The position numbers and the translations under genes were made by a program. Below, piece by piece: positions 21,215 to 44,341 of a stretch of DNA of 64,000 nucleotides. This stretch comes from Acidobacteriota bacterium (GTDB taxonomy: Bacteria; Acidobacteriota; Holophagae; Holophagales; Holophagaceae). The notes beneath the pieces were generated by a model. It was given only the letters and a program-made list of their open reading frames with translations. It was not told the DNA's origin and ran no database searches. How positions within the stretch are numbered: the stretch's first letter is position 1; each line of letters starts with the position of its first letter. The stretch spans positions 188,592 to 252,591 of the forward strand of contig JACPUT010000005.1 in the NCBI GenBank assembly GCA_016192145.1. Reading direction: 5' to 3'.

Positions 21215-21222
21215 GGCACCCC

Positions 21223-21985: not shown

Positions 21986-22029
21986 TTGGTTATTCAGCGT
22001 AGATCGCTGGTTCCCCCGGGGACTCCACC

Positions 22030-25458: not shown

Positions 25459-25622
25459 AGGTACCCTCTCCTTCAATGTGGGCCTCTTCCCGGTGACGGA
25501 GCCCACAGAATCATCATGGAGTCCCGAATTTGGGATGCCCGTCCCAGGACTGGGACGCCATCGCAGGCCACGCCTCCGCTTGAACGGCGCCCATTCGTTG
25601 AAATCCATGGTGGTTTGCCCTT

Positions 25623-25637
25623 TGGCATGGGGTTCGC
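25623..25637 (+). promoter_or_regulatory. Candidate sigma-54 (-24/-12) promoter upstream of the MacA/ADOP cluster
   Basis: TGGCATggggtTCGC compared with the consensus TGGCACG-N4-TTGC. The GG-to-GC spacing is exact, and two flanking positions deviate. It lies 34 nt upstream of the adaptor ATG (25671). Confidence 0.5.
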
Positions 25638-25670
25638 TCCAGGTAAGCCGGCCCTGCGCCGGAGATCTTC

Positions 25671-26915
25671 ATGGACATCCCCCTCGACCGCCCCACCTCA
25701 CGGCGCAAACCCCTCCTCATCGGAGGCGCGGCCCTGGGCTTGCTCGCCCTAATGGCGGGCGTTTCCCGACTCAAACCCGCCGCGCCGGTGGCGGAACGAC
25801 AATCCCTGCTCCTGGACGTGGTGAAGCAGGGTCCCATGGTCTTCCAGGTGCGCGGCACAGGCACCCTCGTGCCCCTCCACGTGCGATGGCTCACGGCCGC
25901 CACGCCGGGACGGGTGGAGCGCCTCCACATCCTGCCCGGCGCCGCCGTGAAGGCCGGCGACGTGATCCTGGAGCTGAGCAACCCCGAGGTGCAGCAGGGC
26001 GCCCAGGACAGCGAATGGGCCCAGCGAAGCGCCGAGGCGGACCTGCTGGGAGCCAAGGCCCGCCTGGAAACGAGCCTGCTCGACGTGCGCGCCTCCCTCG
26101 CCTCCGCCAAGGCCAGCCACAGCAACGCCCGCATGTCTCTCGAAGCCAATGAAAAATTGGCCCTGGCCGGCCTCGTGAGCGGGCAAGATCTCGCCCGGTC
26201 CCGATCCCAGAGCGAGGAGCTCAGCACCCGCTTCGACATCGAGCAAAGGCGCCTCCAAATCAGCTCCGATTCCCTCAAGGCCCAGCTGGCCACCTACCAG
26301 GCCAAGGTGGAGCAGGCCCGCGCCCTCCACACCCTCAAACGCAGCCTCCTGGAGGGGCTGAAGGTGCGGGCCGGCATGGATGGCGTCCTGCAGCAGCTCC
26401 CCGTGCAGGTGGGCCAGCAGTTGAACCCCGGCATCACGCTGGCCAAGGTCGCCCAACCCACCCAGTTGAAGGCTGAGTTGAAGATCAGTGAGACCCAGGC
26501 CAAGGACCTCGCCCTCAACCTGCCCGTGAGCATCGACACCCGGAACGGGATCGTCCCCGGCCACGTGCTGCGCATCGATCCCGCCGTGCAGAACGGCACC
26601 GTCACCGTGGACATCGCCCTCGATGGCCCCCTGCCCAAGGGCGCCCGCCCCGACCTCTCCGTGGAAGGCGTCATCGAGATCGATAAGGCCGCCAACGCCC
26701 TCTTCGTGGGCCGCCCCGTGCAGGCCCAGCCTCACGGCCAGGCGACGCTCTTCAAGCTGAGCCCCGACGGCTCCGAGGCCTCGCGGGTGAAGGCGCGCCT
26801 GGGCCGCGGATCCGTGAACGCCATCGAGATCCTCGAAGGCCTTCGGCCCGGCGACAAGGTGATCCTCAGCGACACCTCCGCTTGGGATGGCGCCGACCGC
26901 ATCCGCATCCAATAA
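25671..26915 (+). CDS. HlyD/MacA-family periplasmic adaptor protein
   Basis: An N-terminal TM anchor (LLIGGAALGLLALMAGV), a lipoyl-like segment, long coiled-coil heptads and a C-terminal beta-barrel. It lies directly upstream of the MacB-type permeases. Confidence 0.85.
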   Translation: MDIPLDRPTSRRKPLLIGGAALGLLALMAGVSRLKPAAPVAERQSLLLDVVKQGPMVFQVRGTGTLVPLHVRWLTAATPGRVERLHILPGAAVKAGDVILELSNPEVQQGAQDSEWAQRSAEADLLGAKARLETSLLDVRASLASAKASHSNARMSLEANEKLALAGLVSGQDLARSRSQSEELSTRFDIEQRRLQISSDSLKAQLATYQAKVEQARALHTLKRSLLEGLKVRAGMDGVLQQLPVQVGQQLNPGITLAKVAQPTQLKAELKISETQAKDLALNLPVSIDTRNGIVPGHVLRIDPAVQNGTVTVDIALDGPLPKGARPDLSVEGVIEIDKAANALFVGRPVQAQPHGQATLFKLSPDGSEASRVKARLGRGSVNAIEILEGLRPGDKVILSDTSAWDGADRIRIQ

Positions 26916-26959
26916 CCCGAGCCCCCGCCCTTCCCGTTTCCCCTTCACCCAGGAGCTCC

Positions 26960-29374
26960 ATGTCCTCCTTCACGCTAGATCTTAAACACGCGCTGCGGGG
27001 CCTTTCGCGCACGCCCGGGTTCACCTTCCTGGCCGTGCTCTCACTGGCTCTGGGCATCGGAGTGAACAGCGCCGTCTTCACGATCCTCAACAGCGTGTTG
27101 CTGCGCCCCCTGCCCGTGCGGGAGCCCTCGCGCCTGGTGCGCGTCTACGCGGGTTCCCGGGAAAGCTTTTCGGTCCCCGCGTTCCGGACCCTGGCCCGCG
27201 AACAAGCCTCGGTGGATCTGGCCGCGGAGAGCCTCAAGCCCCTGAACTGGACCCGCGGAGAGCAGAGCCAGCGGGTCACGGGATCCATCGTCAGCGGCGG
27301 CTACTTCCCCGTGCTCGGCGTTCAGCCCTTCATGGGCCGCCTTCTGGGGCCCGAGGATGATCGCGTGCCCGGCGGCCACCCGGTGGCCGTGCTGAGCCAC
27401 CGCTTTTGGACGCGGAAGCTGGAGGCGGATCCCTCGATCCTTGGCCGAGCGCTCACGCTGAACGGCCACACCTTCACGGTGGTGGGCGTGGCCGCCCCCA
27501 CCTTCCACGGGGATTTCCTGGGCATGGTGCCCGAGATCTGGGTGCCCCTCTCCATGCAGGCCCAGGCCTTCCCCCAGGAGAAGCGGGATCTGTTGGAGTC
27601 CCACGCCACGTCCTGGCTCGAGGTGTTGGGGCGCCTCCACCCCGGTGTCGGGCGGGCCCAGGCCCAGCAGACCCTCCAGGCCCTGGAAGCGGGCGTCTTT
27701 CAGCGGAAGCTCGACCCGGACGAAGGCCACATCGAGGTGGAGGCCATGGGCGGCCTGCCCCGGGCGATTCAAAGCGGCATGGGCGTCATCCTTCCCGCCT
27801 TGCAGGCGGTGGTGCTCCTCGTCCTGCTCATCGCCTGCTCCAACGTGGCGAACCTCCAGTTGGCCCGGGCCATGGCCCGCCGCCAGGAGGTGGCCGTGCG
27901 CATCGCCCTGGGGGGAAGCCGAGCTCAACTGGTCCGCCAGTTCCTCACGGAAAGCGCCGTGCTCGCCCTCCTCGGCGCGGGCGCAGGGCTGGCCCTGGGG
28001 GCCCTGGCCCTTCGGGCCGTGCCCTCCCTCATCCCGCCCGTGGGGCCCGACCTCTTCTTCGACCTGGGCATGGATGGGCGCGTGGTCTCCTTCGCGGTGC
28101 TGCTCTCCCTCGCCACGGGGCTTCTGTTCGGACTGGCCCCCGCCCTGCAATCCACCCGGCCCGACGTGATGAAGACCCTGAAGGAGGAATCCGCGGGAGC
28201 CACTTCCCGCAGGGGTCTCACCCGGCGCCTCTTCGTGGTGGCCCAAGTGGCCCTGAGCATGGTGCTTCTCGTCGCCTCGGGACTCTTCCTGCGCAGCTTG
28301 GCCAAGGCGAAAGACATCGACCCCGGATTCGAGCGCTCGAACATGGTCCTCTTCAACGTGGATCCCGGGACCATGGGCTACGGCCGGGATCGCAACGCGG
28401 CCCTCTTCGAAGCCATTCGCCACCGCGCCGCCTCCCTGCCCGGGGTCCGCAGCGTCGCGCTGGCCCAGATGGTCCCCTTGGAAGGGGGCCGCATGGAGAC
28501 CACGTACCAGATCCAAGGCCAAGAAGTTCCCAAGGGCACGCAAGAGCCCGAGACTGGCCTCAACAAAGTGGGCCTCGCCTATTTCCAAACTCTGGGCATC
28601 CCCCTGCTTTCGGGGCGTGAATTCGCGGAGGGGGACCAGCCCGGCGCCCCCAGGGTGGCCGTGGTCAACGCCACCTTCGCCCAAAAGGTGCTGGGGGGCG
28701 AGGCTCTGGGACGGCGGCTGGTCCTCGACAAGGAGGTCGTCGAAATCGTGGGCGTCGCGCGGGATGTGAAGTCCGGTTCCCTCGGCGAACCCGCGGCCCC
28801 GATGCTGTTCCGTCCCTTGGCGCAGGTTCCCGCCACCAGCCTCACCGTCCACGTGGCCACCACGGGGGATCCGACCCCCTTCCTCGCCCTCATGCGCGGC
28901 ATCGTTCGAGACGTGGACCCCTACCTTCCCGTGAACGAATTGCGCACCATGAAGCAGCATTTCCGCCTGGCCCTCTTCCCCGCCCGGACCGGCGCGCTCC
29001 TGCTTGGGATATTTGGATTTCTCGCGCTGACCCTCGCCACCACCGGGATCTACGGCGTCATGGCCTTCGATTCGACCCAGCGGCGCCGTGAGATCGGCAT
29101 CCGCATGGCCCTGGGCGCCCAGATCCGCGAAGTGGTGGGCCTCATCGTGGCCCAGGGCATGCGCGTGGTCTGCCTCGGTCTGGCCATCGGCTTGGCCTTG
29201 GCCTGGGGCCTGGCCCGCCTGCTTTCCAGCCTGCTCTATGGCATCGCCGCCACCGACGCCTTCACCTTCGCCGCCATCACCGCCCTGCTGGGAGGCGTGG
29301 CCCTCCTCGCCTGCCTCATCCCCGCCCTGCGGGCCGCCCAATCCGAACCCATGCTCGCCCTTCGTAGCGAATAG
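26960..29374 (+). CDS. ADOP-type duplicated FtsX/MacB-like ABC permease (copy 1)
   Basis: N terminus LDLKHALRGLSRTPGFTFLAVLSLALGIG. There are two internal FtsX signatures (RQEVAVRIALGG and RREIGIRMALGA) and the C terminus ends ...ALRSE. Length is 804 aa. An aggag RBS precedes ATG 26960. Confidence 0.9.
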   Translation: MSSFTLDLKHALRGLSRTPGFTFLAVLSLALGIGVNSAVFTILNSVLLRPLPVREPSRLVRVYAGSRESFSVPAFRTLAREQASVDLAAESLKPLNWTRGEQSQRVTGSIVSGGYFPVLGVQPFMGRLLGPEDDRVPGGHPVAVLSHRFWTRKLEADPSILGRALTLNGHTFTVVGVAAPTFHGDFLGMVPEIWVPLSMQAQAFPQEKRDLLESHATSWLEVLGRLHPGVGRAQAQQTLQALEAGVFQRKLDPDEGHIEVEAMGGLPRAIQSGMGVILPALQAVVLLVLLIACSNVANLQLARAMARRQEVAVRIALGGSRAQLVRQFLTESAVLALLGAGAGLALGALALRAVPSLIPPVGPDLFFDLGMDGRVVSFAVLLSLATGLLFGLAPALQSTRPDVMKTLKEESAGATSRRGLTRRLFVVAQVALSMVLLVASGLFLRSLAKAKDIDPGFERSNMVLFNVDPGTMGYGRDRNAALFEAIRHRAASLPGVRSVALAQMVPLEGGRMETTYQIQGQEVPKGTQEPETGLNKVGLAYFQTLGIPLLSGREFAEGDQPGAPRVAVVNATFAQKVLGGEALGRRLVLDKEVVEIVGVARDVKSGSLGEPAAPMLFRPLAQVPATSLTVHVATTGDPTPFLALMRGIVRDVDPYLPVNELRTMKQHFRLALFPARTGALLLGIFGFLALTLATTGIYGVMAFDSTQRRREIGIRMALGAQIREVVGLIVAQGMRVVCLGLAIGLALAWGLARLLSSLLYGIAATDAFTFAAITALLGGVALLACLIPALRAAQSEPMLALRSE

Positions 29375-29382
29375 GAGCCCCC

Positions 29383-30081
<699 letters not shown>

Positions 30082-30145
30082 AGATCACCCCTCAGCTGGC
30101 TCCTAGTCTGACTTCCGCGACGCCCTGCGCATCTTTGGACGGCTT

Positions 30146-32578
30146 ATGCATCCCTTCCTTCAAGACCTCAAGCAGGCCCTGCGCGGGCTCCTCAAGGCGC
30201 CGGCCTTCACGCTCACGGCCCTGCTCACGCTCGCCCTCGGCATCGGCGCGAACACGGCCATGTTCAGCGCCATCCGGGGGCTCCTGATCAAGCCCCTCCC
30301 CTTCCGGGAGGCCGATCGGCTGGTGGCCCTGTGGGAATCCCGTCCCCTCAAGAAGGAGGCCACCTCCCCGCTGTCGGCGCCCAACTTTTTTGATTGGAAG
30401 GACCGCGCCACCCGAGGCTTCGAAGGCATCAGCGTCGTTGAACCCGTCCCCTTCGACTTGGCCGGAGGCGGGCCGCCGCAGCGGATTTCGGCGCTTAGGG
30501 TCAGTTCGAATTTCTTCGACCTCCTCGGCATCCAGCCCCGCCTGGGCCACGGTTTCCGACCCGACATGGAGCGGCCTGGGAATGAGCGGGTCGTCTTGCT
30601 CAGCCATGGGCTTTGGAAGCGCCGCTTCGGCGCGGACCCAGCCTTGATCGGCCACACCCTCACCTTGAGCGGGGTGGCCCACACCGTGCTGGGCGTCATG
30701 CCTGAGGGATTTCTCTATCCGGTGGGCGCCGCCCAGGATCTCTACCTGCCCTTCCCGCGAAAGGTGAATCTAGGCAGCCGCAACGGGCACCGGCTGATGG
30801 CCATCGCCCGACTTCGGCCTGGGGTCACCCACGCGGCCGCCCAAAGCGAGCTTGCCGCCATCGCCGCCGACCTCGCCCGCACTTACCCTGACACCAATGA
30901 GGGCAATGGTGCCGTGGTGCGCGACCTGCACGACGACCTCCTGGGGGAAAGCTCCAAGCCCCTGCTTCTGCTCCTGGGAGCGGTGAGCCTCCTGCTCCTC
31001 ATCGCGTGCACCAACGTGGCCAACCTCTTTCTCCTCCGGGCGATCTCCCGGGAGCGGGAGGTCGCCATCCGCGCCGCCCTCGGTGCCACCCGCGGGCAGT
31101 TGCTATCCCGCTTCTTCTCCGAGGGCCTGCTCCTGGGGTTCATGGCGGCCTTGGTGGGCCTTGGGGTCGCATCCGCGACGCTCCGCCTGCTCCCCGCCCT
31201 CCTACCCAACACGGGGGACCTGAACCAAGTCCAGCGCCTCGGCATCGATCCATGGACCTTGGCCTACACGCTCGGCCTCTCCCTCCTCACCAGCTTCGCC
31301 TTCGCCTTGGTTCCCGCTTGGCAGCTGCGGGAAGCCCACCTGAGCCAGGGTGCGCGCATGGGGGCCAAGGGCAGCTCCGCTTCGGGGCGCCTCCGGTCCA
31401 GCCTGGTGGTGACGGAGGTGGCCCTCGCCATGCTGCTGCTCATGACCACGGGCTTGCTCCTGCGCAGCTTCTTCAAGGCGCTGGCCACCCACCCCGGGTT
31501 CGAGAGCAAAGGCGTCATCGCCTTCGAGGTGGACCTGGCCTCCCATCGCTATCCCAAGGATGCCCAGCAAGGCGCCTTCCAAGCGGAGCTGGAGCGGCGC
31601 CTCGGCCAAATCCCAGGCATCGCTTCCGTGGGTTCGGCCCTCTTCGCGCCCATGTCCGGAAGCAGCTGGACCACCTCCCTCCACATCGGCCCCACCGCGA
31701 CCCCTTCGTCCCGATGGCCCCACCGGGCGGACGTGAACACCGTCAGCCCGGGATTCTTCGAAACCCTCAACGTACCTCTGCGGGCGGGCCGAACCCTCCA
31801 AGCCGCGGACACGGCCGCCAGCGGTCGGGTGGTGGTCGTGAACGAGAGCTTTGCTCGGATGCTCGCCCCGACGGGGCAGGCAGTGGGCCTTAAACTCCTC
31901 GGGGGCATGTCAGGAACCGAGACTTCGCCGGAAGGCACGCTTTGGGAAGTCGTCGGAGTCGTGGGGGATATCCGGCAGCGCAGCCTCGAAACGGCCGCCC
32001 CTCCCATGGTGTTCGTGCCCCTGGCCCAGAGCCCCATGGGCACGCTGGCCTTCTTCGTGAAGAGCCCAGCCTCCTTCGCGGCCCTGAGCGGCGCCATTCG
32101 AGCCGCGGTCCACGGTCTCGATGCCGAGATGGCCTTGGATCGTTTCGAGCCCTTCGAGAATCAGGTCCGCCGCAGCCTGGGGGATCGACGGCAAACCTTG
32201 GTGCTGCTCACGGCCTTCGCTAGCCTGGCCCTCCTCCTTGCCGGTGTGGGCATCTACGGGGTGATCGCCTATGGCGTCAGCCAGCGCACCCGGGAGATCG
32301 GCATTCGGATGGCCCTGGGAGCCCAGATCCGGGCCGTGCTCCGACTCGTGATGGGCCAAGGGCTCAGACTCACCCTTCTGGGAATCGGAATCGGCCTCCT
32401 GGGCTCCGTGTTCACCGGCCGCCTGCTCTCGAACCAGCTCGTGGGTCTGGGCCCCATGGATCCCCTCACCAGCCTGGCGGTGGCGTCCTTGCTCTGCTCC
32501 GTGGCGATCCTCGCCTGCCTCGCCCCCGCCCTTCGCGCCGCACGGGTCGATCCCGCCATCGCCCTCCGATCGGAGTGA
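30146..32578 (+). CDS. ADOP-type duplicated FtsX/MacB-like ABC permease (copy 2)
   Basis: N terminus FLQDLKQALRGLLKAPAFTLTALLTLALGIG. Signatures REREVAIRAALGA and TREIGIRMALGA. C terminus RVDPAIALRSE. Length is 810 aa. Confidence 0.9.
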   Translation: MHPFLQDLKQALRGLLKAPAFTLTALLTLALGIGANTAMFSAIRGLLIKPLPFREADRLVALWESRPLKKEATSPLSAPNFFDWKDRATRGFEGISVVEPVPFDLAGGGPPQRISALRVSSNFFDLLGIQPRLGHGFRPDMERPGNERVVLLSHGLWKRRFGADPALIGHTLTLSGVAHTVLGVMPEGFLYPVGAAQDLYLPFPRKVNLGSRNGHRLMAIARLRPGVTHAAAQSELAAIAADLARTYPDTNEGNGAVVRDLHDDLLGESSKPLLLLLGAVSLLLLIACTNVANLFLLRAISREREVAIRAALGATRGQLLSRFFSEGLLLGFMAALVGLGVASATLRLLPALLPNTGDLNQVQRLGIDPWTLAYTLGLSLLTSFAFALVPAWQLREAHLSQGARMGAKGSSASGRLRSSLVVTEVALAMLLLMTTGLLLRSFFKALATHPGFESKGVIAFEVDLASHRYPKDAQQGAFQAELERRLGQIPGIASVGSALFAPMSGSSWTTSLHIGPTATPSSRWPHRADVNTVSPGFFETLNVPLRAGRTLQAADTAASGRVVVVNESFARMLAPTGQAVGLKLLGGMSGTETSPEGTLWEVVGVVGDIRQRSLETAAPPMVFVPLAQSPMGTLAFFVKSPASFAALSGAIRAAVHGLDAEMALDRFEPFENQVRRSLGDRRQTLVLLTAFASLALLLAGVGIYGVIAYGVSQRTREIGIRMALGAQIRAVLRLVMGQGLRLTLLGIGIGLLGSVFTGRLLSNQLVGLGPMDPLTSLAVASLLCSVAILACLAPALRAARVDPAIALRSE

Positions 32579-32580
32579 CC

Positions 32581-34980: not shown

Positions 34981-34989
34981 GAACACCCC

Positions 34990-37440
34990 ATGACCTCCTT
35001 CCTCCAAGACCTCCGCCTGGCCTTTCGCACCCTGCTCAAGGTCCCGGGCTTCACCCTCACGGCCCTGCTGACGCTGGCGTTGGGCATCGGCGCCAACAGC
35101 GCCATGTTCAGCGCGCTCCGGGGCTACCTGCTGCGGCCCCTGCCCTTTCATCAATCCGAGCGGCTGGTGGCCTTGGATACCGTCTGGGCCGAGAATCCCA
35201 AGGATTTCGCGGGCCTGAGCGGGCCGGGATTCTTTGATTGGCGGAGAAGCACCCAGACCTTTTCGGGGATGGCCCTTTACCGGGCGGCCACCTTCGATTT
35301 GGCCGGGGGTTCCGGCTCCCAAGAGCAGGCTCCCGAGAACATCGAGGGCGCCCTCGTGAGCGTGGATTTCTTTCGGGTGCTGGGCGTGAATCCCATCCTC
35401 GGCCGGACCTTTGAATCCCAGGATGAGGTCAAGGGGGGGGATCCCGCGGTCCTCCTCAGCCACGCCCTGTGGACCCGGCGCTTTGGGGGCGATCCCGCCA
35501 TCCTGGGCCGCACCGTGTACGTGCAGGGCGCCCCCTCCCAGGTGGTCGGCGTGCTGCCCAGGGGCTTCCACTTTCCCATGGGCCAAGGTCAGGACCTCTA
35601 CAAGCCCATCCAAGCTACGGCGGATCCCATGGGCCATGGGTCCTATGAATGGTCGGCCCTGGCCCGCTTGAAGGAGGGTCTGAGCCTGGAGGCGGCCCAG
35701 GCCGAGGCGGATCGCCACCAGCAGGGCGAGCGCCAAGCCTATCCAGACGTCGTGGAGGCCACCGCGAAACTGCAGCTGCGCCCCCTGCGGCAGGCCCTCT
35801 TCGAGGGGGAAGAAAAACCCTTGATGCTCCTCATGGGGGCCGTGGCCCTGATCCTTCTCATCGCCTGCATCAACGTGGCCAACCTCTTCCTGGCCCGGGG
35901 CATCGACCGCAGCCAGGAGGCCGCCGTTCGCGCTTCCCTTGGCGCCAACCTGGCGCAGCTCTTCCGGCACTACTTGGCGGAGGGCCTGTGGGTGAGCCTC
36001 GGAGGCGGCCTTCTGGGACTTTGGATGGCCCACCTCACCCTGGCGGCCCTGCCCGCCCTGCTCCCCGTGGCAGCCCTCAACGCGGGCCCAATGGCCCTAA
36101 GCCTGGATAGGCCCGTGCTCCTGTTCAGCCTCGGGCTGACCCTCGCGGTGAGTCTCGTCTTCGCCGTGGCTCCCGTGCTGCAAACGCGCCGATTGGATCT
36201 CACCCGTGTCTTGAAGGAGGGGGGGCGAAGCCATGCCATGGCTAGGGGAGCGAAGGTGCGCCGCACCCTGCTCGTGAGCCAGGTGGCTCTCGCGGTGATC
36301 CTGCTGGTGGGCGCCGGGCTGCTGACTCGCTCCTTCCAGCGCTTGGTGTCCACCCCCCTCGGGTTCGAGCCGAAGGGCGTCACCACCTTCACCCTGAGCC
36401 TCCACTCGGAGCGTTACCCTTCCATAGCTCAGCAACTGAACTTCCACGCCTCGCTGCAGGAACGCCTGCGGGCCCTGCCTGGCGTCGAGTCCGTGACCTA
36501 TGGCTCCAACCTCCCGGCCCTGGGGGGAGCCACACGGGTGCACACCCACGTAGGGGCGACGGACTTGGATATGCGGAAATGGGCTCACGAGACCGGCCTC
36601 CTCCGGGTGGGCCCCGGCTACCTGGAAACCCTCCGCATCCCCCTGCGGCAGGGCCGGGCCATCGCCTCGACGGACGACGCGAGGAGCCCCCGGGTGGTGG
36701 TGGTCAACGAAGCATACGTGCGTCAGATGTTCCCGGATCGCCAGGCCCTTGGAAGGCGGATCCGGCTGACCACGGGATCCGACCTTTCAGGCGTCGAAAC
36801 CCTCTGGGAAATCGTCGGCGTCGCGGGGGATTTCCGGTCCGAATCCATGGAAAAGGAACCCGGCCCCATGGTGTTCGTACCCGCCCACCAGATCGGGTGG
36901 AGGCGGATGGGTTACGCCCTGCGTTCCTCCCTTTCGGCCAAGGAGCTGGCCCCGGCCGTCCAGGAGGTGGTGCGCGCCGCGGATCCCATGCAGGCCCTCA
37001 TCAAGTACGGGAACCACGAGGATCAGATCCGCCTGCGGCTGCGGGATCGCCGCCAACTCCTCCTCCTGATCGGGTGCTTCGCCGGGCTAGCCCTGACCCT
37101 GGCCACCGTGGGGCTCTACGGCGCCATCAACTATTTCGTGACTTCGCGGACGCGGGAGATCGGCCTCCGGATGGCGCTGGGGGCCCAGGTATCCCAGGTG
37201 GTCCGGCTGGTCCTGCGCCAGGGCCTCACCTTGGTAGGAATGGGCCTTGCCTTGGGCCTTCTGGCCTCCCTCGGAGGTCACAAAACCCTCCAAGGCCACC
37301 TCTACGGCACCGCCGGCCTAGATCCCCTGGCCCTGACTGGGGTCGCGCTGATCCTGGGTGCCACGGGCACACTGGCCTCCCTCATTCCCGCCCTCCGTGC
37401 CGCCCGCGTCGATCCCGCCGTGGCGCTGCGTTCCGAATGA
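34990..37440 (+). CDS. ADOP-type duplicated FtsX/MacB-like ABC permease (copy 4)
   Basis: N terminus FLQDLRLAFRTLLKVPGFTLTALLTLALGIG. Signatures SQEAAVRASLGA and TREIGLRMALGA. C terminus RVDPAVALRSE. Length is 816 aa. Confidence 0.9.
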   Translation: MTSFLQDLRLAFRTLLKVPGFTLTALLTLALGIGANSAMFSALRGYLLRPLPFHQSERLVALDTVWAENPKDFAGLSGPGFFDWRRSTQTFSGMALYRAATFDLAGGSGSQEQAPENIEGALVSVDFFRVLGVNPILGRTFESQDEVKGGDPAVLLSHALWTRRFGGDPAILGRTVYVQGAPSQVVGVLPRGFHFPMGQGQDLYKPIQATADPMGHGSYEWSALARLKEGLSLEAAQAEADRHQQGERQAYPDVVEATAKLQLRPLRQALFEGEEKPLMLLMGAVALILLIACINVANLFLARGIDRSQEAAVRASLGANLAQLFRHYLAEGLWVSLGGGLLGLWMAHLTLAALPALLPVAALNAGPMALSLDRPVLLFSLGLTLAVSLVFAVAPVLQTRRLDLTRVLKEGGRSHAMARGAKVRRTLLVSQVALAVILLVGAGLLTRSFQRLVSTPLGFEPKGVTTFTLSLHSERYPSIAQQLNFHASLQERLRALPGVESVTYGSNLPALGGATRVHTHVGATDLDMRKWAHETGLLRVGPGYLETLRIPLRQGRAIASTDDARSPRVVVVNEAYVRQMFPDRQALGRRIRLTTGSDLSGVETLWEIVGVAGDFRSESMEKEPGPMVFVPAHQIGWRRMGYALRSSLSAKELAPAVQEVVRAADPMQALIKYGNHEDQIRLRLRDRRQLLLLIGCFAGLALTLATVGLYGAINYFVTSRTREIGLRMALGAQVSQVVRLVLRQGLTLVGMGLALGLLASLGGHKTLQGHLYGTAGLDPLALTGVALILGATGTLASLIPALRAARVDPAVALRSE

Positions 37441-37513
37441 GGCAGGCACTACGCAGGTTCAATCCAACCCCTTAGCTCACGGCCCATCGCCCTCCCTTCT
37501 GCGAAGGAACCTC

Positions 37514-39964
37514 ATGCCCACGCTCCGGCAAGACCTGCGCTTCGCCCTGCGTACCCTGGGCCGAACTCCCGGTTTCACAGCGGTGGCCTTGTTCACCCTG
37601 GCCATTTGCTTTGGCGCGAACCTCACCATCTTCGCCGTGATGGACGCGATCCTGCTTCGTCCTTTGCCGTTCAAGGAACCGAATCGGTTGGTCGCCCTCT
37701 ACAATTCCTACCCCAAGGCGAGCGTGGAAAACGATGGCGCCTCGATCCCCAATTATTACGAACGCAGGGGCGCTCTGCCCGCCTTCAGCGGGCTCGCCAT
37801 CTTCCGGCACGAGGCGGCCCTCGTGGGCGAGGTGGGTGCGACCCAACACGAGGAAGTCACTCGCGTTTCGCCGGACTTTTTCTCCACGCTTGGGACCGCC
37901 CCCGCCCTCGGCCGCGCGTTTCTGGAAGCGGAGACGCTTGGATCCGCCGATGATGTCGCGATCCTCTCCCACACCTATTGGCGTCGGCACTTCAACGCCG
38001 ATCCCACGATCCTCGGGCGAACGGTCCGAGTGGGGGGCGTGCCCAAGACGGTCGTGGGCGTACTCCCATCCGGATTCCGGTTTCTATCGTCCGAAGCAGG
38101 CCTTTTCCTGCCCTTCTCCTCAGAGGCCTCAGCCCGCCAATCCAGCCAGCGACACTCCGGTGGCGGGGCGATCCGCATGATCGCCCGCCTCGGCTCGGGG
38201 GTCTCCCTCGCCGAGGCCCAATCCCAAATCGATGCCCACAACGCACAGCTCGAAAAAGACAATCCCCAGGCTCAGATGATCGCGGACGCAGGCTTCCGGA
38301 CAAGGGTGGTGCCCCTCCACGCCGACCATGTGAAGGCCATTCGCCCCACCTTGATCTTGATGCAAGTGGGCGTCTTGTTCCTGCTCCTCATCGGCAGCGT
38401 CAACCTCATGAACCTGCTCCTCATCCGGGCCAGCCACCGCGTGAAGGAATTCGCGGTACGCAAGGTCATGGGCGCGAGCTGGGGTCAGGTGGTCCGCTTG
38501 GCCCTGGTTGAAAACACGCTGCTCACGGTCGTGGGGGGCTGTCTCGGTCTTGGGGTCGGGGCTTTGGGGATCGGTTTCCTGAGCTTGTTCGGCGTGGAGC
38601 GGCTTCCCTTGGGGATGCACATCGGCCTAGATGGGCGTCTGATCGTGGTCGCGGTATCCGGATCCTTGGTGACGGGCCTCCTTCTCTCCATTCCCATCGC
38701 CTGGTTCAACCTCCGGGGCGACTTGACCCAGTCCCTACAATCGGAATCCCGCAGCGGTACGGCAGGGCCCGCCGTCCAACGCCTCCGACACGGCTTCATC
38801 GTGGCCCAGATCGCTTTGGCATTCACCCTGTTGGCCGGGGCCGGCCTCCTGGGATTGAGCCTCAAACGAACCCTGGCGGTGGCCCCGGGCTTTCAGCCGG
38901 ATCACCTCCTCACCGGCCGCATCTCCCTCCCCCCGAACACCTATCGAAGCGGAACGGCCATCCTGGCCTTCCATGAGCGGCTCCTGGAGGCCGTGGGGCA
39001 ACAGCCAGGCGTGGTGGCCGCCGGCATGATCAACAACATTCCGTTCAGCGGGACCAGTGGATTGAGTGCCATCACCGTTCAGGGCCATGCCTTGAACCCC
39101 GGGGAATCCCGACGGGGTCATTACGCCTATGACGTGTCCGGAGACTACTTCAAGGCCCTCGGCATCCCGCTCCGAAGGGGGCGCTTCCTGGAGCCGAGCG
39201 ATTCCCACCTCCCGGGAAGGGTCTGCGTCGTCGATGAGGCCTTCGCGCGTGACTATTGGCCGCGCGGGGATGGCCTCGGGCAGCGGCTGTTCCGAGATTC
39301 CCGGGAAGGCGGCCCTGAATCGGCCTTCACCGTCGTGGGGGTCGTGGGCGCCGTGAAACAGAAGGGGCTCACCGACGAGCCAAGCCAAGGGGCCGTCTAC
39401 TTCCCCTATGGCTACAACGCCGATTCCCAGGCATTCATCGCCATCCGAACGAATCGGTCGCCGGAGGCTTTCGGCGCGGCGCTATTAAAGGCCATCCGCG
39501 GCATCGATCTCGAATTGACCGCCGCCGATGTGCGATCCATGGACGCGCGCATCGCGGATAGCCTCGTGGCCCGCCGCTCCCCCGCGCTGCTCATGGGAAT
39601 CTTCGCCGGCGTGGCCTTGATGCTCGCCGCCATCGGAACTTACGGAGTCCTGAGTTACGCGGCGTTGCAGCGCCGCCGGGAGATCGGCATCCGCATGGCC
39701 CTCGGCGCGCTGCCTCAGCAGGTCTTTTCCCAGTTCTTGAGCCTGGGGGGGAAATTGCTTTTGGGGGGCCTCACCTTGGGCGCCTTGGGCGCCTGGGCGG
39801 CCAGCCGCGCCATGGAGGCCGCCCTCTTGGGCGTCGAATCGATCCATTGGGGAACCTTTACGGGGACGGCAGGGCTCCTCATGATCGTGGTGCTCGTGGC
39901 CTCCCTATTGCCCGCGATCCGGGCCGCGCGGGTGGATCCGGCGGAAGCCCTTCGCTCGGAGTAA
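37514..39964 (+). CDS. ADOP-type duplicated FtsX/MacB-like ABC permease (copy 5)
   Basis: N terminus MPTLRQDLRFALRTLGRTPGFTAVALFTLAICFG. Signatures VKEFAVRKVMGA and RREIGIRMALGA. C terminus RVDPAEALRSE. Length is 816 aa. Confidence 0.9.
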   Translation: MPTLRQDLRFALRTLGRTPGFTAVALFTLAICFGANLTIFAVMDAILLRPLPFKEPNRLVALYNSYPKASVENDGASIPNYYERRGALPAFSGLAIFRHEAALVGEVGATQHEEVTRVSPDFFSTLGTAPALGRAFLEAETLGSADDVAILSHTYWRRHFNADPTILGRTVRVGGVPKTVVGVLPSGFRFLSSEAGLFLPFSSEASARQSSQRHSGGGAIRMIARLGSGVSLAEAQSQIDAHNAQLEKDNPQAQMIADAGFRTRVVPLHADHVKAIRPTLILMQVGVLFLLLIGSVNLMNLLLIRASHRVKEFAVRKVMGASWGQVVRLALVENTLLTVVGGCLGLGVGALGIGFLSLFGVERLPLGMHIGLDGRLIVVAVSGSLVTGLLLSIPIAWFNLRGDLTQSLQSESRSGTAGPAVQRLRHGFIVAQIALAFTLLAGAGLLGLSLKRTLAVAPGFQPDHLLTGRISLPPNTYRSGTAILAFHERLLEAVGQQPGVVAAGMINNIPFSGTSGLSAITVQGHALNPGESRRGHYAYDVSGDYFKALGIPLRRGRFLEPSDSHLPGRVCVVDEAFARDYWPRGDGLGQRLFRDSREGGPESAFTVVGVVGAVKQKGLTDEPSQGAVYFPYGYNADSQAFIAIRTNRSPEAFGAALLKAIRGIDLELTAADVRSMDARIADSLVARRSPALLMGIFAGVALMLAAIGTYGVLSYAALQRRREIGIRMALGALPQQVFSQFLSLGGKLLLGGLTLGALGAWAASRAMEAALLGVESIHWGTFTGTAGLLMIVVLVASLLPAIRAARVDPAEALRSE

Positions 39965-39995
39965 CCTAGAAGCGTCTCCAAAATTCCGAGCCTCC

Positions 39996-41348
39996 ATGCC
40001 GCGCATCCTCATCGCCGACGATCAGCCCGACATCCGGGAGGCACTGCGCCTCCTTCTGAAGGGCGAGGGATTCGCCGTCCAGACGGCCGATAGCCCCGCC
40101 ACCGTGCGCCAAGAACTGGCGACGCGACCCCCATCTCTCCTGCTCATGGACTTGAACTACCGCCGCGACACCACCTCGGGCACCGAGGGTCTCGCCTTGC
40201 TCCAGGAAGCGCTGGCCCAGGATCCGCTGCTCCCCGTCGTGGTGATGACGGGCTACGCCACCATCGAGCTGGCCGTGGAGGCCATGCGCCTCGGCGCGAG
40301 GGATTTCATCCAAAAACCCTGGGATAACGCGCGTCTGCTTTCCATCCTTCGGACCCAGCTGGAACTGGCCATGGCCCTGCGCGCCTCCAAGCGCCTGGAG
40401 GCCGAAAACGCGCTGTTGCGCGGGGAACGGGCGCCCGCCCTCGTCGCCCGGAGCCGCGGCATGGTGTCGCTCCTGGAATTGGCCGCGAAGGTGGCGCCCT
40501 CGGACGCCCCCCTCCTCATCACCGGCGAGAATGGAACGGGGAAGAGCCTGCTCGCGGAAGTGATCCATCGGGCTTCCCGCCGCGCCGCGGGCCCCTTCCT
40601 CACCCTCAACGCCGGGGGCCTCAGCGAGGGCGTGCTGGAGAGCGAACTCTTCGGACACGTGAAGGGTGCCTTCACCGATGCCCGTCAGGATCGTGCGGGC
40701 CGCTTCGAGCTGGCCGAAGGCGGGACCCTCTTCTTGGACGAGGTGGGCAACGCCCCCTCCAGCCTGCAGAGCCGTCTGCTCCGCGTGCTGGAGACGGGCG
40801 CGTTCGAGCGGGTGGGCTCCAGCCGCACCCTGAAGGCCGACGTGCGCCTGATCTCCGCCACCAACGCGGATCTGGAAGCGGAGGTCGCCTCCGGGCGCTT
40901 TCGGCAGGATCTCCGCTTCCGCCTCAATACCGTGGAACTGCACCTTCCGCCCCTTCGCGAACGGCTGGAGGATATCCCGCTCCTGGCGAACCATTTCTTG
41001 GCCCTGCACGCCGCCAAGTACCACCGCAGCATCCATGGCTTCGAGCCGGAGGCGCTGCAGGCCCTCGCCCGCCACACGTGGCCCGGCAACGTCCGCGAAT
41101 TGAGCCATGCCGTGGAGCGCTCCGTCTTGGTGGCGGCCGGTCCCGGCCTGCGGGCCGAGGACCTGCTTCTGCAGGCGCCCCGACCGGGAACCTCCCTGGA
41201 GGACATGGGCCTCGAAGACATGGAAGCCCTGCTCATCCGCAAGGCCCTCCACCGGCACGGCAACGCCACGGCCGCGGCAGAGGCGCTCGGCCTTTCCCGC
41301 AGCGCCTTCTATCGCCGCCTCCAAAAGCTCGGGATCCAGACCGGATGA
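39996..41348 (+). CDS. Sigma-54-dependent response regulator (NtrC/NtrX-like enhancer-binding protein)
   Basis: Receiver motifs (ILIADDQPD, LLLMDLNY) and an AAA+ core (GENGTGKS, ESELFGHVKGAFTDA, GGTLFLDEVG, RFRLNTVELHLPPLRER). A C-terminal Fis-type HTH is present (AAEALGLSRSAFYRRL). The GAFTGA loop reads GAFTDA. Confidence 0.9.
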   Translation: MPRILIADDQPDIREALRLLLKGEGFAVQTADSPATVRQELATRPPSLLLMDLNYRRDTTSGTEGLALLQEALAQDPLLPVVVMTGYATIELAVEAMRLGARDFIQKPWDNARLLSILRTQLELAMALRASKRLEAENALLRGERAPALVARSRGMVSLLELAAKVAPSDAPLLITGENGTGKSLLAEVIHRASRRAAGPFLTLNAGGLSEGVLESELFGHVKGAFTDARQDRAGRFELAEGGTLFLDEVGNAPSSLQSRLLRVLETGAFERVGSSRTLKADVRLISATNADLEAEVASGRFRQDLRFRLNTVELHLPPLRERLEDIPLLANHFLALHAAKYHRSIHGFEPEALQALARHTWPGNVRELSHAVERSVLVAAGPGLRAEDLLLQAPRPGTSLEDMGLEDMEALLIRKALHRHGNATAAAEALGLSRSAFYRRLQKLGIQTG

Positions 41349-42664
41349 ACGCCGCGCCCTCGAACCATGAACGCCAGGTTCAAGTCTGGGCCCTGATGGG
41401 ATCGGTTCCCGCGTTGGTCCTGGCCGCGTTCTTGGCCGCGCGGAAGCCCGAGGCCCGTGGTTGGGCTTGGGCGGGCCTCGCCGCCACCGTCGCCGCGGCG
41501 CTCGGTAGTTCCCTCCAGGTACGCCGCCGCGTGCGGCACCCCCTTCAAACCCTCTCGAACCTCCTCGCCGCCCTGCGCGAGGGCGACTACTCCTTCCGGG
41601 GGCGGGAGGGGAGCGATGATGCCCTGGGCGTGGCCTTCCATGAACTCAACACCCTCGCGGAGCTGCTTCAGCAGCAACGGATCGGCGCCATGGAAGCCAC
41701 CGCCCTCCTCCGCACGGTCATCGAGGAGATCGACGTGGCCATCTTCGCCTTCGACGCGGAGGATCGGCTCCGCCTCGTCAACCGGGCTGGGGAGGCCCTC
41801 CTGGGCCAACCCAAGGAACGCGCCTTGGAATGCTCCGCCGCGGAACTCTCCCTCGACGAGGCCCTCGGCGGACCCAGTTCCATCCTGGATGCCGCCTTTC
41901 CCGGAGGCGCGGGGCGCTTCGAGCTGCGCCGGAGCACCTTTCGGCAGGGCGGCCGCCCCCATCGCCTCCTCGTGATGTCCGATCTCACGCGACCCCTCAG
42001 GGAGCAGGAACGGCAGGCCTGGCAGCGGCTCACGCGCGTGCTCAGCCACGAAATCAACAACAGCCTCGCGCCCATCCAGTCCCTCGCCGGCAGCCTCGCC
42101 TCCCTGACGCGCCGCGCCCTCCCCGAGGGGGAATCCGCCGAGGATCTGCAGCAGGGGCTCGCCGTCATCGAGCGGCGCAGCGCCGGCCTCCAACGATTCC
42201 TGTCCGCCTACGCCCGCCTCGCGAAGCTGCCGGCCCCCGAGCGCCGCGCCCTCGCCTTGGAGGCCCTCGTGCCTCGGGTGGCTCGATTGGAGACACGGCG
42301 CCCCATCACGGTGAACCCAGGCCCTGAACTGACGGTCTCCGCCGATGAGGACCAGCTGGAGCAGGCCCTCATCAACCTCCTGAAGAATGCGGCCGAAGCC
42401 ACCGAAATCACGAATGGCGGCGTGTGGGTGACCTGGCGTCGAGAGGGGCGCTGGGCCCGCGTCGACGTGTGCGACGAAGGTCCCGGCCTGCCTCCGACGG
42501 CGAACCTCTTCGTGCCCTTCTTCACGACGAAGGTGGGCGGTTCGGGCATTGGCCTCGCCCTGGCCCGGCAGATCGCCGAGGCCCACGGCGGCAGCCTCGC
42601 CCTGGAAAACCGGGAAGCGGGCCCGGGCGCACGCGCGGTGCTGCGCCTGCCCCTCCCGGGCTAA
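41345..42664 (+). CDS. Membrane sensor histidine kinase (NtrY-like: 2 TM, HAMP, PAS, HisKA, HATPase)
   Basis: ATG 41345 overlaps the regulator stop (ATGA). There are two TM helices, then the H-box LSHEINNSLAPI, N-box LINLLKNAAEA, and G-boxes DEGPGLP and GSGIGLALA. Confidence 0.85.
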   Translation: MNAAPSNHERQVQVWALMGSVPALVLAAFLAARKPEARGWAWAGLAATVAAALGSSLQVRRRVRHPLQTLSNLLAALREGDYSFRGREGSDDALGVAFHELNTLAELLQQQRIGAMEATALLRTVIEEIDVAIFAFDAEDRLRLVNRAGEALLGQPKERALECSAAELSLDEALGGPSSILDAAFPGGAGRFELRRSTFRQGGRPHRLLVMSDLTRPLREQERQAWQRLTRVLSHEINNSLAPIQSLAGSLASLTRRALPEGESAEDLQQGLAVIERRSAGLQRFLSAYARLAKLPAPERRALALEALVPRVARLETRRPITVNPGPELTVSADEDQLEQALINLLKNAAEATEITNGGVWVTWRREGRWARVDVCDEGPGLPPTANLFVPFFTTKVGGSGIGLALARQIAEAHGGSLALENREAGPGARAVLRLPLPG

Positions 42665-42709
42665 TTCCACCGGTGGCGCATCACCGCGATTCATTTTTTT
42701 GGAGATCTC

Positions 42710-43207
42710 ATGCTGCTCCCCATCCTCCCCGCTCTCGTCGCCCAGCAGGCCCAGGCCCCTGCCCTCCCGGGCGCCGTGGAGGTGCGCCCTGGCCTTTTCG
42801 TCGTGCTCGGCACGCCGGGACCGGCGACCTTCGCGGGACTGAAGGCCTCAGGCATCACCCACGTGCTCAACCTCCGCCATGAGGCCGAAGCTGATGCCAA
42901 CGCCGACCTCGCCGCCACCCGGGCCGCCGGCGCGGCCTACGATCGCTGCCCCATGGATCGCGAGCCGTCGGCCGCTGCCCTGGATGCCTTCCGGGCCAAG
43001 CTGCGGGCCCTGCCCAAGGGTGCTCGGGCCCTCATCCACTGCGCCTCGGGCAACCGCGTGGCGGGAGCCCTCTTTACCTTCTGGGTGCTGGATGGGGGCA
43101 TGGCGGAAGAAGACGCGCTGAGCCTGGCGAAGCGGGCGGGGTTGAAGAGCCCCGTCACGGAAGCCGCGGCGAAGGCCTATGTCGCGGCCAAGCGGGCTGC
43201 CAAGTAG
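42710..43207 (+). CDS. Secreted DUF442/dual-specificity-phosphatase-like protein
   Basis: A signal peptide and a P-loop HCASGNRV of the HCxxGxR type. Length is 165 aa. Confidence 0.6.
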   Translation: MLLPILPALVAQQAQAPALPGAVEVRPGLFVVLGTPGPATFAGLKASGITHVLNLRHEAEADANADLAATRAAGAAYDRCPMDREPSAAALDAFRAKLRALPKGARALIHCASGNRVAGALFTFWVLDGGMAEEDALSLAKRAGLKSPVTEAAAKAYVAAKRAAK

Positions 43208-43213
43208 CCTCCC

Positions 43214-44341
43214 TCAGCCCTTGCGATCCATCCGCTGGGGCACCGGGGCATAGACCCGGCGAAGGGTTTCCGGGGCCTTCGCCCAAGCCTTCAGCGCTTC
43301 ACCGCGGGTGGCATACCACCCCCAGCAGGCCTGCCACGCCCGAACGCCATCGCGCCGGGGCCAGGGCAGCACGGTGATCCGATCCGCCCGGCGGCCCGCC
43401 TGGGTGGCGAGGTGGGGAAGGCCCGTGTCGGTGACGGCCACGAGCATCCGGAGCGTCCAGGGTCGGGCGGGATTTCCCACCCGCGTGGCGCCCACGCGGA
43501 GGCAGGCCTCCAGATTCCCCTGCCGCATCGCGGTGAGGGGATCCGGCAGCGATTCCGGAGCGGGTATCACCCGGATCTCCAGGCTGCGGCTGAGCCCCCC
43601 GGCGAGGTTGCTCACGCTGAGGGTGTAGACCGTGGTGCGGTCAGGCACCACCGTGACCTTTTCGCGCCCCGTGAGCTCCAGGCCCCCGGGCTCCAGGCGC
43701 ACCTTGGCTTCGCCCTGGCACTCCCACATCAGCTCCACGGGCTGGCCGGGCGCCACTTCGAGCCGGTTGGCGGCAAAGCTGCAGATGCGCGCCGGTGCCT
43801 GATCCCGGGGTGTGGGCATCACCGCTACGTCGAGGCTGCGGGTCTGGCCCCCGGCGTCGTTGGTCACCAGGAGCGTGTAGCGGGTGTTCTCCTGGGGGGT
43901 CACCACCACGAAGCTGCGGCCATCCAGCTCCAGGCCGCCCGGCTCCAGGCGTACCTTGGCGGCTCCCGTGCACTCCCAGCTCAGCACCACGGGATCGCCG
44001 GGCAGCACCTTCGCCGAGCTCGCATCGAAGCTGCATACCCGCGCGGGCTCCCCGAGGGGAAGGCCCGGTTCCACCTTCACCAAGGCGCGGGCCAGTTCGC
44101 GCCCATCGTCGGCGCGGCGCAACACGTAGGTGGTGGTGGCGGAGGGGCGCAGGGTGAGCTGTCCCGCTTCGCCCAGGCGGATATCCCCAGGCTCGAGGCG
44201 CACCACCCCCGTGCCCGGGGCGGACCACCGCAGCAGCAAGGTCTGACCGGGTCGGATCGATGGCTCCGAAACTTCCAGCAGAGGCGGAGCCTGGGCGCAC
44301 AGGATAGGCGCGGCCACCAGGGGTGTCAGGAAGGGGCGCAT
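43214..44341 (-). CDS. Secreted protein with three ~84-aa Ig-like repeats and a distinct C-terminal domain
   Basis: Start at 44341 (signal MRPFLTPLVAAPILCAQA). Repeat units have the form ...RVCSF..V.PG.PV.L.WEC.GAAKVRLEPGGLEL.G...V.V.P...T.YTL.V.N.AGG..RSL...V.P. The DNA period is about 250 bp. Confidence 0.65.
   Translation of the reverse strand: MRPFLTPLVAAPILCAQAPPLLEVSEPSIRPGQTLLLRWSAPGTGVVRLEPGDIRLGEAGQLTLRPSATTTYVLRRADDGRELARALVKVEPGLPLGEPARVCSFDASSAKVLPGDPVVLSWECTGAAKVRLEPGGLELDGRSFVVVTPQENTRYTLLVTNDAGGQTRSLDVAVMPTPRDQAPARICSFAANRLEVAPGQPVELMWECQGEAKVRLEPGGLELTGREKVTVVPDRTTVYTLSVSNLAGGLSRSLEIRVIPAPESLPDPLTAMRQGNLEACLRVGATRVGNPARPWTLRMLVAVTDTGLPHLATQAGRRADRITVLPWPRRDGVRAWQACWGWYATRGEALKAWAKAPETLRRVYAPVPQRMDRKG

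Follow-up and report, generated by a model that had tools for sequence, protein, structure and literature searches.

A cluster of five ADOP permeases around one ABC ATPase in a Holophagaceae genome: a candidate modular Type VII transporter operon under sigma-54 control

ATP-binding cassette (ABC) transporters of Type VII, which form the MacB superfamily, are built from a unit of four transmembrane (TM) helices, a large periplasmic domain, and major and minor coupling helices (PMC5985334). Where permeases of this superfamily are fused, the ATPase is always the product of a gene of its own (PMC5985334). In YbbAP, two ATPases are combined with one fused permease carrying two coupling helices (PMC12646458; PDB 9GE6-9GE8), and the darobactin exporter DarBCD consists of a fused permease, an adaptor, and a separate ATPase (PMC8442675), the fusion being read only from the length of the NCBIfam profile (777 positions). 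In soil Acidobacteriota and their neighbours, the ADOP permeases (NCBIfam TIGR03434) rank among the largest paralogous families that are still unexplained. Genomic island 43 of Psychroflexus torquis (Bacteroidota), a 42-kb island with transposases and a TesA-like thioesterase gene, carries about ten highly translated ADOP paralogues and transporter genes with ATP-binding regions (PMC3914696); neither an adaptor nor a sigma-54 pair is described for it, and no mechanism is proposed. Dyadobacter genomes contain 28-33 ADOP copies each. These two were the only mentions of ADOPs found in the literature searched, which held no paper describing a cassette of adaptor, ATPase, ADOPs, and sigma-54 regulators. 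Here, a nine-gene cluster with this content is analysed in a 64,000-nt stretch (the window, to which all positions refer unless a related locus is named) of contig JACPUT010000005.1 from an Acidobacteriota bacterium of the Holophagaceae (GCA_016192145.1). The cluster is classified as a multi-permease, separately energised Type VII ABC system, and all of it is probably one operon of ~17 kb, dependent on sigma-54, for a modular ABC transporter of the cell envelope.

Open reading frame (ORF) listing and translation place nine co-directional plus-strand genes at 25671-42664. The first encodes an adaptor of the membrane fusion protein type (25671-26915; 414 aa). It is followed by the ADOP permease P1 (26960-29374; 804 aa), which separates it from the ATPase gene NBD1 (29383-30081; 232 aa), then by the ADOPs P2 (30146-32578; 810 aa), P3 (32581-34980; 799 aa), P4 (34990-37440; 816 aa), and P5 (37514-39964; 816 aa), and finally by an NtrC-family sigma-54 activator, the response regulator (RR; 39996-41348), and a sensor histidine kinase (HK; 41345-42664). 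The gene starts from P2 through the kinase are matched by independent gene calls on a Logan contig with an identical P2. Intergenic gaps measure 44, 8, 64, 2, 9, 73, and 31 nt in gene order, and RR and HK overlap by the 4 nt of an ATGA (41345 against 41348). A preliminary description of this DNA had reported five ~800-aa ADOPs beside an ATPase, an adaptor, and a sigma-54 pair joined by ATGA coupling, all of which is confirmed; of the gaps of 3-73 nt that it gave between permeases, the maximum is correct and the minimum is 2 nt, between P2 and P3.

By hidden Markov model (HMM), the five permeases are members of the ADOP family. Each aligns end to end with TIGR03434 above its curated cut-off of 622.3 bits (868, 862, 807, 831, and 750 bits for P1 to P5), and each contains two MacB_PCD (PF12704) and two FtsX (PF02687) domains in Pfam, in agreement with the ADOP/FtsX identity first proposed from motifs. 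To our knowledge, the original note on the family describes members with no ABC ATPase gene adjacent. This attribute is descriptive and stands outside the HMM definition, thus the membership of P1-P5 holds; the label "orphan" fails for these five and remains apt for many of their relatives. The further statement of the preliminary description, that ADOPs are "essentially never" adjacent to an ATPase, goes too far, as such clusters are common in the genome scan reported below and the P. torquis cluster had already been published (PMC3914696). Pairwise identity among P1-P5 is 32-46%, with P5, the most divergent copy, at 32-35% to the other four. The copies are therefore old paralogues, one of two origins that had initially been considered. 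The other, a recent tandem duplication, was rejected on this range and on a maximum of 54% identity within any locus. Between paralogues, the periplasmic domains retain 27-33% identity against 39-54% for the membrane and cytoplasm-facing parts.

An AlphaFold2 model of P2, built on 104 sequences (predicted local distance difference test 89.8; predicted template modelling score 0.84), together with hydropathy, shows a direct 4+4 fusion with eight TM helices and two periplasmic domains of ~200-230 residues. Major coupling helices are modelled at residues 303-311 (between TM2 and TM3) and 715-723 (between TM6 and TM7), and short minor helices follow TM4 and TM8. The model, in which P2 appears as a covalent MacB-type dimer, contains every element of the Type VII unit twice, namely four TM helices, a large periplasmic domain (TM1 to TM2), a major coupling helix (TM2 to TM3), and a minor coupling helix at the C-terminal end. 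Foldseek against the PDB returned E. coli YbbP as the top match (9ge6_A; E 5e-19, full length, 17% identity), followed by MacB, Spr0695, LolC/E, BceB, and HrtB; the solved BceAB-S structures 8g3a and 8s5g are also among the matches. At the sequence level, phmmer of ADOP against the PDB reached only the FtsX part of MacB and did not recover YbbP. Given this fold and the precedents of YbbAP and MacB, an ADOP is predicted to form the entire membrane half of a Type VII transporter and would need two ATPase subunits.

The motifs by which the cluster was first recognised can be placed on the P2 model. The N-terminal motif corresponds to an amphipathic helix before TM1, the REIGIRMALGA-like motifs to the two major coupling helices, and RVDPAxALRSE to the C-terminal minor coupling helix; all are features of the MacB family (PMC5985334) and are not specific to ADOPs. 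The preliminary description had credited every copy with two FtsX signatures and the RVDPAxALRSE terminus. Both signatures are real, the first, in the N-terminal half, being more degenerate (for example REREVAIRAALGA or RVKEFAVRKVMGA), and the terminal motif applies to all copies except P1, which ends in SEPMLALRSE.

NBD1 is an ATPase of the MacB/LolD/DarD type, with matches in NCBIfam and the PDB to DarD, MacB, LolD, FtsE, YbbA, and Spr0694. Its Walker A, signature, Walker B, and H-loop motifs read as intact in the sequence, and no other MacB-type ABC ATPase was detected in the window. The adaptor is of the HlyD/RND_mfp type (TIGR01730, 110 bits against a cut-off of 94.9; HlyD_3, HlyD_D23, and Biotin_lipoyl_2 domains) and has an N-terminal TM anchor at residues 14-32.

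A scan of 185,579 species genomes with NBD1 recovered at least 598 relatives, of which the best 80 (70-94% identity) were fetched with flanks of up to 10 kb and mapped with HMMs built from the window proteins. Six ADOP contexts were also sampled through the permease, and 86 loci were fetched in all. The 80 ATPase-derived loci belong mostly to Holophagaceae, Blastocatellia, Vicinamibacterales, Pyrinomonadaceae, Terriglobia, Bryobacteraceae, Gemmatimonadota, and Verrucomicrobiota; at the level of phyla, Acidobacteriota, Gemmatimonadota, and Verrucomicrobiota dominate, with single metagenome-assembled genomes (MAGs) labelled Planctomycetota. Two contigs (L035 and L059) are binned as "uncultured Bifidobacterium sp." and "uncultured Clostridia bacterium", labels that are implausible because an adaptor-containing system is diderm, and mis-binning or mislabelling is probable.

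The adaptor gene lies directly upstream of the ATPase gene in 67 of the 74 loci whose upstream flank is long enough, hence the adjacency seen in the window is conserved among relatives. Where at least 8 kb are available on both sides (38 loci), at least one same-strand ADOP is present in 27 loci (0-7 full-length copies), an orthologous sigma-54 RR in 21, the HK in 19, and a second ATPase paralogue, NBD2, in 24. NBD2 has ~221 aa and ~46% identity to NBD1, and its gene often stands just before the regulator gene (L025 10966-11631; L080 13415-14080; L007 16848-17675). Its catalytic motifs are intact, with GNLHS instead of GNLDS in the D-loop, which suggests an asymmetric NBD1/NBD2 heterodimer under a pseudo-symmetric ADOP in the cassettes that carry it. 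NBD2 is absent from the window and from other Holophagaceae loci; the single ATPase of the preliminary description thus applies to the window, and many related cassettes have two. All-versus-all clustering of unassigned ORFs found no further conserved gene family in more than 10 of the 80 loci, the largest being an unrelated kinase type. Beside the NBD1-clade ATPase in the same loci, the only alternative permease is one single-unit FtsX ORF on the opposite strand (L059).

The frame of the cassette is conserved and its ADOP content turns over. The closest relative, L001, from a Holophagaceae MAG, is syntenic with the window at 80-91% nucleotide identity through the resistance-nodulation-division (RND) operon, P-type ATPase, adaptor, ABC ATPase, and regulator; its three ADOPs between the ATPase and the regulator share at most 43% amino acid identity with any of P1-P5. 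An orthologue of P1 with 69% identity exists in L002, but there it is located after the ATPase. The median best match of an ADOP is 42% within its own locus (never above 54%) and 48% across loci, and median pairwise identities are 79% for NBD1, 71% for NBD2, 68% for RR, 58% for HK, and 49% for the adaptor among these loci, which were selected through NBD1. In two contexts found through P2, arrays of ADOPs surround one ATPase: L081 (1785-22418) carries an adaptor, two ADOPs, the ATPase, and then at least seven ADOPs, with at least ten ADOPs around the one ATPase in all, and L082 has an ADOP, the ATPase, and then five to six ADOPs. A conserved frame with variable ADOPs fits the pattern expected of a slowly evolving motor that serves exchangeable specificity modules, and the variable, non-orthologous ADOP content of close relatives agrees with the earlier characterisation of the permeases as interchangeable. 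A gene for a secreted S41-family peptidase (17919-19565, plus strand) occupies the interval between the last ADOP and the regulator in L001, where the window has more ADOPs.

The regulators and the upstream DNA point to enhancer-dependent control. The RR contains REC, AAA+ sigma-54 interaction, and HTH_8 domains and the HK contains PAS, HisKA, and HATPase domains, and these, with a -24/-12-like site, fit an NtrC-family sigma-54 two-component system. The sigma-54-contacting L1 loop of the activator reads GAFTDA, not the canonical GAFTGA, and does so in all 30 of 30 cassette-linked orthologues, on which ground these regulators can be taken as one orthologous group. The promoter-like element TGGCATGGGGTTCGCT (25623-25638, plus strand) is the sole match to TGGCAY-N5-TYGCW on either strand of the window, with 0.27 expected by chance, and stops 32 nt short of the adaptor ATG. 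Aligned with L001, its GG and GC elements are conserved, and the spacer and surrounding intergenic DNA have diverged. Under a relaxed pattern, sigma-54-like sites precede the adaptor gene in 25 of 68 related loci, compared with 10% of control windows, and mostly lie 23-52 nt ahead of the predicted start; the full consensus with up to two mismatches is found there in 9 of 68, compared with 1.2%. Before internal ADOP genes such sites are not enriched (7 of 52), and separate sigma-54 promoters for these genes were rejected. A consensus scan of 25300-43500 found no sigma-70-like promoter.

About 70-100 bp upstream of the promoter, a motif scan located two dyads 20 bp apart (25521-25556), GTCCCGAATTTGGGAT and the exact palindrome GTCCCAGGACTGGGAC, which form a candidate enhancer, or upstream activating sequence, for the NtrC-type activator. 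The dyad is kept in L001 within an otherwise diverged intergenic region. Across the 86 fetched loci, exact GTCCCA-N4-TGGGAC occurs in relatives only upstream of the adaptor gene (L001, L035, L067, and L081), and with up to two mismatches it is found in 6 of 68 upstream regions against 1.6% of controls. The enhancer-dependent control proposed in the preliminary description gains backing from this promoter and dyad, and a single, positively autoregulated sigma-54 operon would be the simplest reading. On the opposite strand lies a divergent P-type ATPase ORF (22975-25608, minus strand; 877 aa), the true start of which probably lies deeper in the ORF; the Cation_ATPase_N domain begins at residue 55, and the first ~55 codons cover the dyads together with a stretch that shows little conservation in L001. 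With a start further in, the real intergenic region would be ~150-230 nt, not 62 nt.

On the reading favoured here, the cycle of expression would begin with the kinase, which has almost no periplasmic loop and would phosphorylate the NtrC-type activator. The activator would then bind the two GTCCCA-N4-TGGGAC dyads and fire the promoter at 25623, such that adaptor, P1, ATPase, P2-P5, activator, and kinase would be transcribed together, resulting in positive autoregulation. One ADOP with two copies of the single ATPase would make a complete transporter, with the 2:1 stoichiometry of YbbA2-YbbP. The five ADOPs would serve as alternative membrane modules that compete for the same ATPase dimer and adaptor, and, since divergence is greatest in the periplasmic domains, each complex may act by MacB-style mechanotransmission on a substrate of its own in the periplasm or the outer leaflet. 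To export across the outer membrane, the system would require an outer-membrane factor encoded elsewhere, for which the outer-membrane efflux protein (OEP) at 15167-16642 is one candidate. The modular reading is well supported on genomic grounds.

Several findings weigh against this modular operon. The adaptor scores far below the equivalog cut-offs for both MacA (22.5 bits against 342) and DarC (68 bits against 450). A search of the 80 loci with phmmer found no homologue of the window OEP, with sensitivity limited by the divergence of TolC-like proteins; as no outer-membrane factor is conserved in the cassette, the word "tripartite" in the preliminary description was an overstatement, and a tripartite pump is an assumption. 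Because many relatives carry NBD2, the homodimeric ATPase may be a derived state. A recognisable sigma-54 site lies within the upstream stretch searched in only the 25 of 68 related loci given above, and the cassettes of Pyrinomonadaceae appear to use a REC-SpoIIE regulator instead of the sigma-54 pair. At the other end of the cluster, the terminator-like hairpin with a T-rich tail directly 3' of the kinase stop (42671-42696, plus strand; consensus scan) is weak, and the number of such hits in the region does not exceed shuffle expectation. Of the six ADOP contexts sampled through the permease, three are solitary, one of them with PadR, and L085 (1-22409) holds at least nine consecutive ADOPs with no ATPase within 10 kb or in the 22 kb covered. 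Finally, selection of the 80 loci by similarity of the ATPase means that they link this ATPase clade to ADOPs, but not ADOPs in general to the clade.

The REC-SpoIIE regulators just mentioned, of the PP2C phosphatase type, follow NBD2 in two Pyrinomonadaceae loci (L014 10200-11417 and L027 11416-12606, plus strand). The sigma-54 regulator pair was not found within the flanks of either, and the regulatory module therefore differs between lineages.

Cassettes without a permease bear on where the partners of this ATPase are encoded. In six loci (L025, L034, L036, L045, L069, and L070) from Terriglobia, Gemmatimonadaceae, and Blastocatellia, the adaptor, NBD1, NBD2, regulator, and kinase are intact full-length ORFs, and no FtsX-type gene was found within ~10 kb on either side. 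The flanks of three of these cassettes are unrelated (CDF transporter, lipoyl synthase, AI-2E transporter, NrfD, and molybdopterin oxidoreductase), and L055 and L057 show the permease-free gene order too, but with shorter flanks. L080 has one ADOP between NBD1 and NBD2; at the same place L063 has an in-frame 130-aa "mini-ADOP" (10885-11277, plus strand) in which the N-terminal helix and TM1 run straight into the last coupling helix and TM7-8, and which looks like a deletion remnant. Conversely, both coupling-helix and both minor-helix motifs are kept in the three solitary ADOPs and in one array member. Permease-free cassettes and retained coupling helices fit, and do not prove, the idea of an ATPase and adaptor that serve in trans the ADOPs of other loci.

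From the permease-free Terriglobia cassettes, the ADOP remnant of L063, and the coupling helices retained in orphans, it can be tentatively proposed, at somewhat less than even odds, that the adaptor/NBD1 cassette, with or without NBD2, is a common energising module for the whole ADOP family, including the many solitary orphans dispersed in genomes of Acidobacteriota, Gemmatimonadota, and Verrucomicrobiota. The ADOP search returned at least 7,700 clusters at 90% identity. Such a system might be a Type VII counterpart of the sharing known from ECF and MsiK, with a slow ATPase hub, fast permease turnover, and a kinase that might read transporter activity, as BceS does. An identical -24/-12-like sequence, TGGCCCCGCGCCTGC, stands ~45 nt before the starts of orthologous solitary ADOPs in two related genomes, L084 (9955-9969) and L086 (3008-3022), which hints that some orphan ADOPs may also be sigma-54-dependent.

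The alternative that survives best departs from the modular operon in what the motor does. The ATPase may power ADOPs as extractors or mechanotransducers, in the manner of LolCDE, YbbAP-TesA, or FtsEX, and not in adaptor/TolC efflux, passing lipids, lipoproteins, or hydrophobic compounds to periplasmic partners, with the adaptor serving at most one of the ADOPs. YbbP, the closest solved fold, functions with no adaptor and supplies TesA with the hydrophobic compounds that it extracts (PMC12646458), the Psychroflexus ADOP cluster includes a TesA-like thioesterase gene (PMC3914696), and L001 has its secreted peptidase inside the cassette, which lacks an outer-membrane factor. Yet no gene accompanies the ATPase more constantly than that of the adaptor (67 of 74), and retention of the adaptor even in cassettes with no ADOP argues that it is integral; furthermore, ADOPs lack the two linker TM helices of YbbP. 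This reading is considered unlikely, though it deserves to be kept in view.

The architecture of the kinase raises a different alternative, in which the main role is sensing. Two N-terminal hydrophobic helices are separated by a loop of ~7 residues, the second helix falling below the 1.6 hydropathy threshold and being read from the sequence, and the protein has no periplasmic sensor domain (H-box SHEINNSL). By analogy with BceS, it might sense through an FtsX-type transporter, which is a lead and not a result. If the FtsX-type permeases reported transport to this loop-less kinase as in BceAB-BceRS, the cluster would be a multi-input sensor of envelope compounds, with detoxification secondary. 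The kinase and activator co-occur with the cassette across phyla, and permease-kinase complexes of BceAB-S (8g3a and 8s5g) appear among the fold matches. However, the cytoplasmic PAS domain could sense alone, the regulator is NtrC-type and not OmpR-type as in Bce, and some lineages exchange the two-component system for REC-SpoIIE while keeping ATPase, adaptor, and ADOPs. A primary sensing role is improbable, and it would not conflict with the modular operon.

Still less probable is a pump dedicated to the export of, or self-resistance to, a peptide natural product or bacteriocin, similar to DarBCD and with the extra ADOPs redundant. DarD is the best NCBIfam match of NBD1, the adaptor and the permeases weakly match DarC and DarB, and the three-part list is the same (PMC8442675). 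These scores nevertheless remain far below the equivalog cut-offs (254 against 375 bits for DarD, 68 against 450 for DarC, and 22 against 700 for DarB), the ADOPs are deeply diverged and not redundant, and no radical-SAM, precursor, or other biosynthetic gene stands beside the cluster, nor is one conserved in the 80 loci. The weakest alternative, that ADOPs work without an ATPase and that the ATPase/adaptor pair belongs to another system, agrees with the original family note and with the frequency of solitary ADOPs, but this is largely refuted and scarcely credible, as the linkage is kept across phyla, no alternative permease accompanies the ATPase clade apart from the opposite-strand FtsX ORF of L059, clustered and solitary ADOPs alike keep the coupling-helix motifs for the nucleotide-binding domain, and the fold is that of an ATPase-dependent Type VII permease.

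Some neighbouring features deserve mention. A complete RND efflux operon (OEP, adaptor, and AcrB-type pump; 15167-21001, plus strand), preceded by an ArsR/MarR-type regulator gene (14310-14852), adjoins the cassette in both the window and L001, and, of the candidates for an outer-membrane partner of the ADOP system, its OEP, ~9 kb upstream, lies nearest. Directly after the kinase, and before a TonB-dependent receptor gene (43412-46453), lies an ORF (42710-43207, plus strand) that shares a high third-position GC content with the ORFs at 20923-21618 and 21990-22517 (both minus strand); two of the three have no Pfam family, and that at 42710-43207 has only a sub-threshold match to PTP-SAK phosphatase. 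In Terriglobia-type cassettes, a small ORF of ~55-80 aa with an N-terminal TM helix and the motif (K/R)(H/N)(V/I)D(L/V)(V/I)A(V/I)xLLL directly follows NBD1. Its six-frame matches, all on the plus strand, lie at 10703 in L025, at 10699 in L034, L045, L063, and L070, at 10737 in L047, 3391 in L051, 6144 in L055, 3591 in L057, and 10769 in L080; all 10 of the 10 matches in ~1.3 Mb fall at the post-NBD1 position. This ORF has no Pfam match and is absent from the window.

The recurrence of the cassette across several soil phyla provides a concrete, testable candidate for the motor used by orphan ADOPs. A shared motor, if real, would explain how a permease family could expand without its ATPase and would show that Type VII ABC systems can be modular. 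The permease-free cassettes in particular turn the question of orphan ADOP partners into direct experiments, and one ATPase, one activator, and its promoter give experimenters a handle on the substrates that abundant soil bacteria pump or extract. Should the shared-motor reading be wrong, the locus would still be an ordinary, though unusually rich, MacB-type efflux operon.

Among described systems, one ATPase module is known to serve many membrane components, some of them encoded elsewhere, in the group II energy-coupling factor (ECF) transporters (EcfAA'T with scattered S-components) and with MsiK and MsmX. The logic of sharing is the same as that proposed here; the folds and transport direction are unrelated. 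No description of ATPase sharing in Type VII or MacB-type systems was found in the literature searched.

YbbAP resembles the ADOPs in having a single-polypeptide permease of two MacB-type units, two periplasmic domains, and a separate ATPase that binds 2:1. It differs in that YbbP has an extra pair of linker TM helices, also found in BceB, whereas ADOPs are direct 4+4 fusions; moreover, YbbAP comprises one permease gene and the partner TesA, with no adaptor and no sigma-54 regulator, against the five permeases, adaptor, and sigma-54 pair of the cassette. MacAB-TolC has the same permease unit (TM1, Porter/Sabre domain, TM2, coupling helix, TM3, TM4, and minor helix), an ATPase of the same subfamily, and a HlyD-type adaptor encoded alongside. 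As E. coli tolC is unlinked, the absence of an outer-membrane factor from the cassette does not decide for or against a tripartite pump. In MacB, a four-TM permease that works as a homodimer carries the ATPase at its N terminus, whereas here one chain holds both permease halves and the ATPase is a protein of its own, and scores against the MacB equivalog are 66-101 bits for a cut-off of 966. The five alternative permeases per ATPase, an adaptor scoring far below the MacA equivalog cut-off, and sigma-54 control also set the cassette apart from MacAB. DarBCD shares the parts list and the best match of the ATPase, but the cassette has several permeases, and all three of its proteins fall far below the Dar equivalog cut-offs. 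BceAB-BceRS shares a fused FtsX-type permease, a separate ATPase, an adjacent two-component system, and a kinase without an extracellular sensor domain; BceB is a protein of 10 TM helices with a single extracellular domain, the OmpR-type regulator of Bce depends on sigma-70, and these systems belong to Firmicutes and have no adaptor. With scores far below cut-offs and differing architectures, the cluster is not an orthologue of MacAB, DarBCD, YbbAP, or BceAB. Its closest counterparts are YbbAP in fold and stoichiometry, DarBCD in parts list, MacAB-TolC in adaptor logic, and BceAB-RS in the link to a two-component system.

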